From positions 19,902,001-19,966,000 of the forward strand of contig OZ024763.1 in NCBI GenBank assembly GCA_964016885.1: a stretch of 64,000 nt of DNA, given 5' to 3'. Below the pieces are notes generated by a model. It was not told where the DNA came from, searched no databases, and saw only the letters and a program-made list of their open reading frames with translations. Source of the stretch: Eledone cirrhosa (taxonomy: Eukaryota). Position 1 is the first letter of the stretch, and each line of letters begins with the position of its first letter. Shown here one piece after another: positions 12,131 through 17,915 of this stretch. The position numbers and the translations under genes are program-made.

Positions 12131-12414
12131 TATCAGTCTTTCAACAGTTGATGGTAGATACACATGTTAGCATGTTCTTGTGTGTGTAAATATATATATA
12201 TATATACATACATACATACATACATACATACATACATACATACATACATACATACGTATATATATACATACACATACATACACACACACACACATTTATA
12301 TATATATATATATATATAAATGAAGTAATTCCATCGGAAAAGTCCAGGAAAAAAGAGTACTCTATGTAGGTAACAGAGCTTAATAGTTATGTAATAAACA
12401 ACATAAGGCAATTA

Positions 12415-12473
12415 TTCCATTTACCAGTGGTTTCTTAAAAGCAAAAAATTTTGCTTTCAATCATCAGAATGAA
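12415..12473 (-). ncRNA. Type I hammerhead ribozyme, family H3 (left arm of fold-back 12384-12638)
   Basis: TTCATT CTGATGA TTGAAAGCAAA attt TTTGCTTTTAA GAAA CC act GG TA / AATGGA: canonical core, 11-bp stem II, GUA cleavage triplet. Confidence 0.8.
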
Positions 12474-12548
12474 AAAATCCTGGTCTGTTTATTGAATTTC
12501 GATTTTTAAAAAATTTTTTTAAAAATCTAATTCAATAAATAGGATTTT

Positions 12549-12607
12549 TTCCTTCTGATGATTGAAAGCAAAATTTTTTGCTTTTAAGAAACCACTGGTA
12601 AATGGAA
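12549..12607 (+). ncRNA. Type I hammerhead ribozyme, family H3 (right arm)
   Basis: CTGATGA 12555-12561, GAAA 12588-12591, GTA ending at 12600; one stem I mismatch. Confidence 0.75.
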
Positions 12608-12632
12608 TAATTGCCTTATGTTGTTTATTACA

Positions 12633-12674
<42 letters not shown>

Positions 12675-12689
12675 CATATATTATATATC

Positions 12690-12780
12690 TTTTCCTATTA
12701 CCCACTCTACTCCCCTAAGTATTGAGTACTCTGGTGCGTTACGGTTCACCTGGTTCCTTACCACACTTTCTTTGTTATAT
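12690..12780 (+). repeat. Dispersed ~90-bp element (ttcctattacccactctact...tttgttata)
   Basis: Copies at 48224-48310, 55506-55594 (-) and 57908-57995; three of the four have an adjacent fold-back hairpin. Confidence 0.7.
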
Positions 12781-12794
12781 ATATTTACCACTAG

Positions 12795-13018
12795 GTAAGG
12801 GTGTTGGACTTATGATCATAATGTTGAGCAAAACACTTCATTTCACGTTGCTCCAGTATACTGAAAATGAGTAGCAGCAATAGCTGGGGGTTTAACCCTG
12901 CGATGGACTGGCGTCCTGTCCGGGTGGTAATATTGTACTCTCAGTCACTTCATCCCATGAAACAGGGGTAAGCACCGACCAAATGAGCCTTCTGGCTTAA
13001 GACAGACTTTAGACTTTT
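12795..13018 (+). mobile_element. tRNA-derived SINE with CORE-like and V-like domains (degenerate)
   Basis: ttgagcaaaacacttcatttcacgttgctccag followed by aaccctgcgatggactggcgtcctgtcc; tail gactttagactttt. Confidence 0.6.
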
Positions 13019-13398
13019 GAAATATATATATATGATCATATATATCGACTGTCGATCGACAAGATCCCACACCTCATTCTCTTAATGAGTGGGGTGGAGT
13101 TCGTCAAATCGGGCCGAGGAAACAATGTTTTCATTGGTCTTTCCAATTGCTACAAGGACATAACATTGCCCAGTCCGGGAATTGGAATCACAACCTCACG
13201 ATTGTGAATCCAATTCTCTAACCACTCACCCACGTGCCTTTGAATAAATATATATATATATACAAATGAAATACAGAGTTACTAACTCATATTGATACCC
13301 TGTAATTAACAATACTGAGCATTATATAATAATATATGTAGAAATAAACACAGTAATTAAAGATATATATATATATATTTCTTTAATTTCTCATTCTA

Positions 13399-13434
13399 TT
13401 TTCTGAGGAAGGACTAGCATCCAAAACATCAAGA
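13399..13434 (+). ncRNA. Degenerate minimal hammerhead, family H4 (GAAA changed to AAAA)
   Basis: tttt CTGAGGA a GGA ctagca TCC AAAA ca TC aaga; homologous copy at 55942-55977. Confidence 0.45.
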
Positions 13435-13616
13435 CTCTTTTCCTACTATATCAAGCATAAAACTAATAATATATTTCTTCATTGTACTATGTTGTTTGCT
13501 TTGTTATTTCTGTTTTCCTTTTGCATATATATGTATATATATATTTAAATAAAAATATACATTATATATATATACAATATATTAATAAATGGAAACTATA
13601 TTTATAAAACCATAAT

Positions 13617-13682
13617 TATTTAATTATATATATTTCAAGGGTGGCCAAGTTAAATTATGGTGCGCTTTCATCAGATAAAATA
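13617..13682 (-). ncRNA. Type I hammerhead, family H5 (left arm of fold-back 13572-13895)
   Basis: TATTTTAT CTGATGA [imperfect stem II] GAAA TATATA TA / ATTAAATA. Confidence 0.65.
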
Positions 13683-13783
13683 CAGATTTGTTTTATAAAT
13701 AAATATTGACATACCAGGAAAAAAGACAACCTCAACGGTTGAAATTCGCTGGTATGTCAATATTTATTTATAAAAGAAATCTG

Positions 13784-13849
13784 TATTTTATCTGATGAAA
13801 GCGCACCATAATTTACTTTGTTCGCCCTTGAAATATATATAATAAAATA
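13784..13849 (+). ncRNA. Type I hammerhead, family H5 (right arm)
   Basis: TATTTTAT CTGATGA aagcgc...cgccctt GAAA TATATA TA / ATAAAATA: 8-bp stem I, palindromic stem III. Confidence 0.7.
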
Positions 13850-13984
13850 ATTTATGGTTTTATAAATATAGTTTCCATTTATTAATATATTGTATATTTA
13901 CACTACTAATCTGTTGAATGCTTTATATCAGTTATAACATTTTTTAAGCTTGTTGAATCCCAACAAATTAAATATAACCTCTGC

Positions 13985-14039
<55 letters not shown>

Positions 14040-14313
14040 CTAGGGTACCATTATATATATATATATATTTATATAAAAATATACATTATATATACAAACA
14101 TTATATATATATATATATATATATATAAAATCATATATATAATTATATGCATTATATATATATATATAAATATATAAGTTGTAATAAAATGAAAACGAAA
14201 TTTCATTTCTCACTCTTAGTACGGCACTTACTTAAATGTAAGTATGTATGTATACGTACATACATATATGTATGATAAACTGATACGTGCATATATGTAT
14301 GTGTACCTGTATG

Positions 14314-14354
<41 letters not shown>

Positions 14355-14361
<7 letters not shown>

Positions 14362-14429
14362 TAAACAAATAATGAATAAACAATTCCTTATATAAGGAAT
14401 TGTTTATTCATTATTTGTTTAATATTTTA
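14355..14429. repeat. Perfect ~74-bp palindrome
   Basis: aaaatattaaacaaataatgaataaacaattccttata|tataaggaattgtttattcattatttgtttaatatttt (the arms overlap at the centre). Confidence 0.85.
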
Positions 14430-14561
14430 TCTTGACTCTGTATACCGTTTATCTTTCACCGAAAGTGATTTTTCATTACATCTCTTCTTTCCATGATATC
14501 CGGAATACATTGAGTTCTTCATACGGATTGGACACTACCGTAAACTCTTGGTAGATTTATC

Positions 14562-14597
<36 letters not shown>

Positions 14598-15089
14598 TGC
14601 TACTGTACGTCTGTATACATATATGTATGTACGTATACATACTTACATATAAATATATATATATATATATATAACCATATATAGTAATAATAATAAAATT
14701 GAAGACTAAAATCCAAGGGTGAAAGCAGCGATTCTTTGCTTAAACTTTAATCTGTTATTTTAATAAATATAACCATATATATATATATATAAAATGGCAG
14801 TCATACAATATAGCTTATGATATTTAGTTATACCCGTTATTATATTGAGAGTTCAAATCCATCTGAGGTCAGCTTTGTATTTTGTTTCACGTGGGAGGGT
14901 GTTTAAATAGTCTAATTCCTCTATTACTTTCCCAAGTTGCCAAATATATATGACCTTGTGACCTATGTTGTATATAATAATTAATGGTGGTGGTGGTGGT
15001 GGTCATAGTGATAGTGTTGCTATCAGCGGTGGTGGTACTGTTGGTGCTTGTATATATACACACATGCACGCACACACTCTCACCACCCC

Positions 15090-15125
<36 letters not shown>

Positions 15126-15284
15126 GTATATATATATGTATATGTATATATATATGTATATGTATATATATATGTTTTCAAGACGCTGGCTGGACTAAAA
15201 AGTCACACTCGTTCAGCGCATCGGTAGGGGTTCTCCTACATGGATATAAAGTAGTGGCCGTACTCGAAAACGAGTTGGCAGCCA

Positions 15285-15319
<35 letters not shown>

Positions 15320-15441
15320 GGAGGTGAGTTTTATTGTAGTACAATAAAGCAATGCAGATATCGGATAAGAAGCACTCTACAGTTTGTGGGACTGGAGTAT
15401 GCATAATATAAGATCAAAAGATGGTTAAAGGAGTTCCATAT

Positions 15442-15510
15442 ATTTTATTATGCGCATTTCAAAAACAAACATCATCAAGCAATAATATTTGTGTTTTCAT
15501 CAGATAAAAC
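15442..15510 (-). ncRNA. Type I hammerhead, family H6 (left arm of fold-back 15404-15683)
   Basis: GTTTTAT CTGATGA AAACACAAAT...GTTTGTTTTT GAAA TGCGCA TA / ATAAAAT. Confidence 0.75.
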
Positions 15511-15576
15511 AGGAAAACATGATATGAAGGCTAAAAAAACACAAGTGCTTTTTTAGCCTTCATATCATGTTCTCCT

Positions 15577-15645
15577 GTTTTATCTGATGAAAACACAAAT
15601 ATTATTGCTTGATGATGTTTGTTTTTGAAATGCGCATAATAAAAT
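15577..15645 (+). ncRNA. Type I hammerhead, family H6 (right arm)
   Basis: CTGATGA 15584-15590, GAAA 15627-15630, palindromic TGCGCA, then TA and stem I. Confidence 0.75.
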
Positions 15646-15681
15646 ATATGGAACTCCTTTAACCATCTTTTGATCTTATAT

Positions 15682-17915
<2,234 letters not shown>

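Follow-up and report, generated by a model that had tools for sequence, protein, structure and literature searches.

The 64,000-nucleotide window of Eledone cirrhosa DNA analysed here (assembly GCA_964016885.1, contig OZ024763.1, positions 19,902,001 to 19,966,000 of the forward strand) contains five short fold-backs whose arms carry hammerhead ribozyme (HHR) motifs on opposite strands, which raises the question of whether such pairs are devices or residues. An initial annotation of this DNA had proposed the former, namely a potential conditional RNA switch: the antisense arm would zip up the ribozyme, and cleavage would stay blocked unless something such as adenosine-to-inosine (A-to-I) editing destabilised the duplex. 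The units are a real feature of a known kind, stump-sized head-to-head insertions of Penelope-like elements (PLEs), mostly of Hydra-type families. They are very probably 5'-truncated PLE ends, each joined head-to-head to its own inverted copy, with the pairing a likely by-product of insertion that has no switch function.

All five palindromes named in the initial annotation are present where it had placed them, and their arms are 93–99% identical over aligned letters: 118/121 in unit 1 (12383-12509/12519-12639, with 6 gap columns), 146/154 in unit 2 (13567-13720/13745-13900), 131/132 in unit 3 (15403-15534/15553-15684), 145/156 in unit 4 (49870-50045/50283-50438, with 20 gap columns) and 151/153 in unit 5 (63637-63789/63848-64000). 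What the earlier boundaries left out is a one-sided tail of 60–90 nt. Units 1 to 3 sit inside (TA)n in the window sequence, while the inverted arm of unit 5 extends about 35 nt beyond the window end, again into (TA)n. The arms and tails of the units, together with one HHR-less fold-back absent from the initial annotation, are arranged as follows.

12318..12382, minus strand: one-sided 3' tail of unit 1, family U1 (tail probe on exactly one arm in 13/13 U1 pairs)
12383..12509, minus strand: left arm of unit 1, a PLE 3' end with a type I HHR (core 12467, predicted cut after 12422)
12519..12639, plus strand: right arm of unit 1 with HHR, ending in (TA)n (core 12555, predicted cut after 12600)
13567..13720, minus strand: left arm of unit 2 with HHR (core 13674, predicted cut after 13625)
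13745..13900, plus strand: right arm of unit 2 with HHR (core 13792, predicted cut after 13841)
13901..13985, plus strand: one-sided 3' tail of unit 2 (tail probe, boundary mapping)
14353..14565, without strand: HHR-less fold-back, a 78-bp palindrome (14353-14430) plus a one-sided tail
15315..15402, minus strand: one-sided 3' tail of unit 3, about 90 nt (boundary mapping)
15403..15542, minus strand: left arm of unit 3 with HHR (core 15503, predicted cut after 15449)
15543..15684, plus strand: right arm of unit 3 with HHR, the 3' end of a Hydra-clade PLE (core 15584, predicted cut after 15638)
49870..50045, minus strand: left arm of unit 4 with the mutated HHR core CCAATGA (descriptor scan)
50283..50531, plus strand: right arm of unit 4 with HHR, including a tail at 50439-50531 (core 50352, predicted cut after 50390)
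62249..63789, minus strand: long arm of unit 5, a partial tandem of a ~1.27-kb element (HHR cores 63721 and 62446)
63848..64000, plus strand: inverted arm of unit 5 with HHR (core 63916, predicted cut after 63979)

The partial tandem of unit 5 is seen as a direct repeat (62249-62574 / 63524-63849). Copies related to the fold-back at 14353-14565 occur in three other loci (L034, L079 and L207), that in L207 being a fold-back with a different centre. Further small fold-backs without a CTGANGA core lie in AT-rich flanks at 3225-3271, 36898-37094, 53636-53743 and 55587-55701; the first of these has a one-sided tail and lacks the HHR core.

The HHRs were located with a type I descriptor (CUGANGA and GAAA core, UH site, helices I-III) at a score threshold of 14, giving 8 matches in the real window and 0 in 100 block-shuffled windows. 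Cores were placed at +12555/-12467, +13792/-13674, +15584/-15503 and +50352, and the descriptor agrees with the cleavage sites proposed earlier, after 12600, 13841, 15638 and 50390. The layout first described, a minus-strand HHR on the left and a plus-strand HHR on the right of every unit, holds in four of the five, the exception being unit 4, where the left core reads CCAATGA and not CTGATGA. The strict descriptor is satisfied by 7/10 arms; one of the others has this mutated core, and the two belonging to unit 5 miss it at the stem II base. The cores of unit 5 (+63916 and -63721) are present and escape the strict descriptor because that base is U-U, and a looser descriptor is passed by one copy of the family. 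No hammerhead family was among the Rfam matches to 15400-15684 (E up to 10) or among the 150 of 394 matches listed for the whole window; those listed were sub-threshold and of microRNA type, so the identification of the HHRs rests on descriptors.

Stem III of the units is palindromic, with 2–3 bp as a monomer and full pairing possible with a second copy, and by analogy with known ribozymes these HHRs look dimer-dependent. The work of Cervera and de la Pena (2014, PMC4209133) on PLE hammerheads whose helix III is palindromic or missing describes a type I core with a long helix II, a palindromic helix III and dimer dependence, all paralleled here, the last as judged from sequence; helix II here is longer (8–15 bp in three units) and a full palindromic helix III is present. 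The same work reports dual HHRs of Schistosoma mansoni lying 100–700 bp apart on opposite strands. Other HHR-like motifs occur in the window. A solo U2-family HHR lies at 46182-46300 (minus strand, core 46289), with no inverted partner within the window. Degenerate copies of another HHR-like family, whose core is followed by a short GGAC stem, occupy 13403-13440 and 55946-55985, more intact copies being found among the genome-wide convergent-pattern matches. A motif that combines a CTGACGA core, a short stem II and CTAG as stem III is present at 57517 (minus) and 46594 (plus), and one copy of it matched the descriptor at low score.

The PLE origin of the units, already suggested in the initial annotation, is upheld by a reverse transcriptase (RT) open reading frame (ORF) for U3 and by related ORF pieces for U1, U2 and U4. 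In locus L034 the U3 end follows an 821-aa predicted RT-endonuclease ORF, P0001, with the motifs RLRW, HSDKTN, YRDD and CNCRIKNKC (a CxCx5C linker). Its C-terminus, inspected by eye, contains an IY...YFG segment, CNLC (CxxC) and CLH (CxH), without a Pfam GIY-YIG match. Hydra-clade marks as given in section 11 of Craig et al. (2021, PMC8557442, in part) comprise RW(K), DKG changed to DKT, the CxCx5C linker, CxxC, CxH and GIY-YIG without CCHH, and P0001 shares RW(K), DKT and CxCx5C, and by eye probably CxxC and CxH, with these C-terminal EN+ (endonuclease-bearing) PLEs, which include Hydra-1_Obim of Octopus bimaculoides. A structure model of P0001 (pLDDT, predicted local distance difference test, 83) has a telomerase as its top Foldseek match (E 6.6e-07), telomerases making up five of the first six rows, and 25 homologues were found at 31–42% identity, one of them from Argonauta hians. 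Among the 20 U3 loci retrieved, mostly long pairs, six hold an ORF with an RT-type YxDD motif. The ends of U1, U2 and U4 are in register with ORF pieces 35–53% identical to P0001 at 2–5 loci each: Hydra-type endonuclease pieces for U1 (L054, L055, L203, L207), pieces at L197 and L200 for U2 and, for U4, a Hydra-type ORF beginning about 200 nt behind the HHR in L149 and L165, with the DKT motif in L149 likewise. Judged by these motifs, U3 is a Hydra-clade PLE, fully identified by an RT with Hydra-clade marks, and the linked pieces assign U1, U2 and U4 to Hydra-type families. Three of the units had been called unrelated; the units do represent distinct families, but they are not unrelated, because four of these families link to Hydra-type ORFs. 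The U5 element, about 1.27 kb long with no ORF of at least 220 aa and with similar tandem spacings genome-wide, is probably non-autonomous.

Further likeness to Hydra-clade PLEs, as portrayed in portions of PMC8557442, lies in (TA)n targets, an HHR near the 3' end, partial tandems, an inverted 5'-truncated copy and a tail at one end. The U3 HHR differs, in a comparison by eye, from that listed for Hydra-1_oBim, the U3 unit measures 3.3–3.9 kb as opposed to less than 3 kb, and the tail is 60–90 nt instead of 30–40 nt. Partial tandems of U3 (pseudo-long terminal repeats, pLTRs) were found at L031, L032 and L035. Locus L031 also holds, at 495-9049 (G000:C1:54092300-54101900), an 8.5-kb near-perfect palindrome of 99.1% identity, each arm of which is a whole U3 unit plus a partial tandem. 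At L200:3281-5782 an 834-aa ORF with RT and GIY-YIG, of a different PLE family, is nested within a U2 pair, and that family bears its own inverted partial copy there. Exact pattern matches in the 3.0-Gb genome number 9,855 for a U3 30-mer (20,118 for a 23-mer, a very high copy number), 4,458 for a U2 31-mer, 597 for a U5 pattern, 339 for a U4 30-mer and 271 for a U1 38-mer. In four contig sets compared with 15318-15683, the U3 family was detected in those of three organisms; the junction of unit 3 is spanned by no piece listed there, although a contig of run X6, from another organism, has a fold-back junction of the family.

Genome-wide, divergent core pairs with a gap of 40–200 nt occur at 14,516 loci against 107 for the control, and convergent pairs with a gap of 100–260 nt at 1,169 against 40. 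At least one arm conforms to the HHR descriptor in 14 of 15 divergent loci checked, and both arms in 9, while in 10 convergent loci one arm does so in 5 and both in none. The excess of divergent pairs expected under a switch is thus found, but it is not specific to one, because known PLE biology predicts the same. Among the first 100 U3 matches listed, neighbours within 6 kb were divergent in 33 cases, convergent in 1 and tandem in 4. U3 neighbours are spaced 108–5,024 bp apart with a size peak at 150–165 bp, and tandem spacings across families are 1.2–3.9 kb.

How each pair arose is recorded in its centre, its variants and its tail. U3 centres vary from locus to locus, the size peak included, and sizes are continuous up to full-length ORF-bearing copies. 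Divergence of the U3 arms is 1.8% within a locus (50 pairs) and 6.2% from one locus to another (4,900 comparisons). At three sites the two arms have their subfamily variants in common in 41/41, 46/46 and 51/51 cases, and together these figures imply that both arms derive from a single template or a single source locus. Exactly one arm is tailed in 42/49 U3 pairs (45/51 by a second method), 13/13 of U1, 7/9 of U2, 8/8 of U4 and 7/7 of U5, or 77/86 pairs across the five families (p 7e-15 against 0.5). Differing centres, shared variants and the single tail indicate that each fold-back was built during insertion. Removal of 5 pairs with unresolved junctions from the 42 one-tail U3 pairs left 37 clean ones. 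In 14 of these it is the tail-less arm that extends further 5' and in 8 the tailed one, the two being equal within 15 nt in 15. Non-nested arms of this kind are hard to obtain by simple snap-back and fit two primings.

The 5' ends of the U3 arms are informative as well. In a set of copies picked by a motif that lies downstream of the HHR, 23/92 end at -72 to -66 from the core, 21/92 are truncated within or just before the HHR and 2/92 start exactly at the predicted cut site. The contrast between 2/92 and 23/92 indicates that most templates were uncut there, and the cut site was rejected as the main class of arm start. Both arms terminate at -69 in 813 fold-backs. Across the genome a non-templated letter precedes that site in 3,030 copies, the number for a control position 16 nt further in being 67. 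This letter is a G in 53 of the first 100 copies listed, scored by eye, compared with 16/67 at the control (p 2e-4), about 15 of the 53 being explicable by templating from the opposite arm. In multi-base centre inserts at least one complementary DNA (cDNA) strand continues with C in 24/30. An extra G marks the capped RNA 5' end in L1 insertions, according to part of PMC11702581, and the U3 pattern suggests a capped sense transcript that starts near -69 and was copied from both broken DNA ends. For U1, U2, U4 and U5 the search for 5'-end hotspots gave nothing usable, as inverted arms, (TA)n and loci that overlap confounded it, so the cap-G result is limited to U3.

A sequence of events can be proposed on this basis. 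The RT-endonuclease would cut both strands of a (TA)n target, and each broken end would prime reverse transcription on the same sense RNA, or on RNAs from one source locus. Priming would take place at a near site (+98 from the HHR core) at one end and at a far site (+189, which yields the tail) at the other, after which both cDNAs would either terminate early or continue past the 5' end of the RNA, and would then join 3' end to 3' end. Duplication of the HHR in the fold-backs would follow solely from its position a short way upstream of both start sites. The replicating lineage, in which dimers could form between tandem copies, may preserve it intact; in the stumps it would be a passenger. Shared U3 variants are found in 0/12 core columns but in 16/52 upstream and 9/36 stem II columns, and this avoidance of the core fits selection on the source elements.

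There is a biochemical parallel in Poseidon PAc of Anolis carolinensis (Frangieh et al. 2024, PMC11167929), sections of which report that in vitro both strands are cut and extended, that two RT start sites bound the tail, that the protein is a predicted dimer and that it assists HHR cleavage, which is dispensable. PAc shares the AT-rich target and an HHR upstream of the start sites, while belonging to a different PLE clade. L1 twin priming, in the portion of PMC11702581 concerned with it, likewise has a second DNA end prime on the same RNA to give an inversion; there, however, the arms are adjacent non-overlapping parts of the RNA, whereas here both copy the same 3' region and a palindrome results. 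A more specific version is put forward tentatively, at somewhat less than an even chance: a dimeric RT-endonuclease would prime both ends of the double-strand break on one capped sense RNA, with obligate use of the near start site for one end and of the far site for the second, and U3 cDNAs would run off a capped 5' end at -69, add a C and sometimes repeat their last 8 bases in a telomerase-like slip before head-to-head joining, a process recorded in the genome thousands of times. At several U3 centres the last 8 cDNA bases do recur once or twice more, a pattern that resembles the telomerase-like addition of repeats at a template end. A search of titles and abstract openings, outside which most subscription papers fell, found no report of PLE twin priming or of an untemplated cap base at the transcription start.

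Several observations count against the insertion by-product account. The U3 pairs were partly selected on an HHR-containing 30-mer, within the first 57 Mb of contig C1, and the one-tail rule is broken in 9/86 pairs. The HHR core is intact in 65/71 U3 copies that span it. Private changes fall in the core at 6/968 compared with 80/6,404 elsewhere (p 0.11), and differences between arms at 5/591 compared with 100/5,190 (p 0.07); core changes so trend low, short of significance, leaving room in these alignments for weak selection on the HHR of genomic copies. Pfam matched neither RT nor GIY-YIG in P0001, with its alignment likewise, and a PDB sequence search with P0001 or the alignment gave no recognition. 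Finally, priming at two ends is deduced from the products, and identical ends could result if the endonuclease trimmed a hairpin intermediate.

That last route belongs to the alternative of self-priming, by cDNA snap-back or by self-primed antisense RNA, with the endonuclease trimming one arm to leave a single tail. Variants common to both arms would be expected of it, many junctions show 2–8 nt overlaps or small palindromes, and it is the reading given to head-to-head repeats with junction palindromes in the relevant part of the Adineta vaga study (Arkhipova et al. 2013, PMC3846280). The Penelope pLTRs of that rotifer share with the present units a head-to-head orientation as the commonest, junction palindromes and a tail on one arm. 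Snap-back on the chromosome, however, predicts nesting, and 14/37 clean pairs are non-nested (8 nested, 15 equal); the extra G at -69 (53/100 vs 16/67) fits a capped sense and not an antisense template. Where antisense self-priming was proposed for A. vaga, the non-nested arms and extra G here would point to a capped sense template primed twice, and self-priming as the main route within the by-product reading appears doubtful, if still plausible.

The insertion by-product could also have acquired a host effect, in which read-through of the hairpins yields double-stranded RNA for editing and for small RNAs by which the parent PLEs are silenced, with no part for the ribozyme. Long RNA duplexes are substrates of ADAR and Dicer, and hairpins that are short and near-perfect number about 14,000 in the genome. 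PLE-derived small RNAs are reported from rotifer and Drosophila in part of PMC3846280. No sign of selection for the hairpins was seen, and an effect of this kind is considered possible, though on balance unlikely.

Very little probability attaches to fixed palindromes, whether MITE-like (miniature inverted-repeat transposable elements) or retrozyme-like, that move whole, or to assembly artefacts from fold-back reads. Arms of up to 99% identity and the U3 size peak at 150–165 bp might suggest them, but centres differ between loci even within that peak, most loci having a centre sequence not shared with others, sizes grade into full-length ORF-bearing copies, the arms differ by mismatches and a biological tail, and the run X6 contig has its junction in another organism. 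A non-LTR (non-long terminal repeat) retrozyme, built of head-to-tail HHR repeats of a few hundred bases, was rejected on the inverted pairs and the tandem spacings of 1.2–3.9 kb.

The switch was assessed by folding, with energies from a nearest-neighbour model in which helicases and proteins have no part. As the initial annotation held, the read-through duplex buries the ribozyme: in the full fold-back the HHR fold is disfavoured by 67–110 kcal/mol, a penalty that makes the zipping argument physically right, compared with 5–7 kcal/mol for a single arm alone in this model without tertiary contacts. Release by A-to-I editing, the example given in the proposal, did not follow, as simulated editing never brought the HHR fold within 12 kcal/mol. 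With 10–100% of adenosines edited it remained 12–95 kcal/mol unfavourable in 48/48 conditions (3 units), the gap of at least 12 kcal/mol persisted when the letters of the core and of stem I were protected and inosine could not pair, and with every A edited and inosine non-pairing the HHR fold lay 12–27 kcal/mol above the best fold. Editing of both arms also strikes five essential core adenosines, all of which are retained in 3% of molecules at 50% editing. As stem III is of the type reported to require a dimer (PMC4209133) or the PLE protein (PMC11167929), there would be little for the duplex to silence. Nor is the fold-back peculiar to ribozymes, the same layout being found with a truncated HHR (21/92) or with none (14353-14565, 3225-3271). 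Titles and abstract openings, in a search beyond which most subscription papers lay, gave nothing that joined hammerhead, antisense and A-to-I editing in retrotransposons. Despite the suppression by the duplex, an orientation that always places the antisense arm first and core changes that trend slightly low, the switch is thus extremely improbable in view of the failed editing, the dimer-type stem III, the arbitrary spacer lengths and centres, a dead core in 1/10 arms of the five units and the existence of HHR-less fold-backs.

Elsewhere in the window a large inverted repeat (22713-25984), with 1.39-kb arms 95% identical, overlaps long interspersed element (LINE)-type RT fragments. Fragments of RT ORFs in which RVT_1 precedes a weak match to a PHD finger lie at 26681-28420 (plus) and 59471-61603 (minus), and minisatellite arrays occupy 6880-8219, 42819-43915 and 50865-51494, with periods of 48, 61 and 112 bp.

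Head-to-head PLE ends are already published, in PMC8557442 and PMC3846280, which describe the inverted truncated copy and the one-sided tail of PLE insertions, as are opposite-strand HHR pairs. The interest that remains lies in the junction statistics, that is one tail per pair, non-nested arms and a sharp 5' end with G, which bear on the origin of PLE inverted ends and tails. If true, two-end priming on a capped sense RNA would settle the question of a sense or antisense template for these inverted ends and would explain the one-sided tail, and the roughly 14,000 short hairpins may feed editing and small-RNA pathways.

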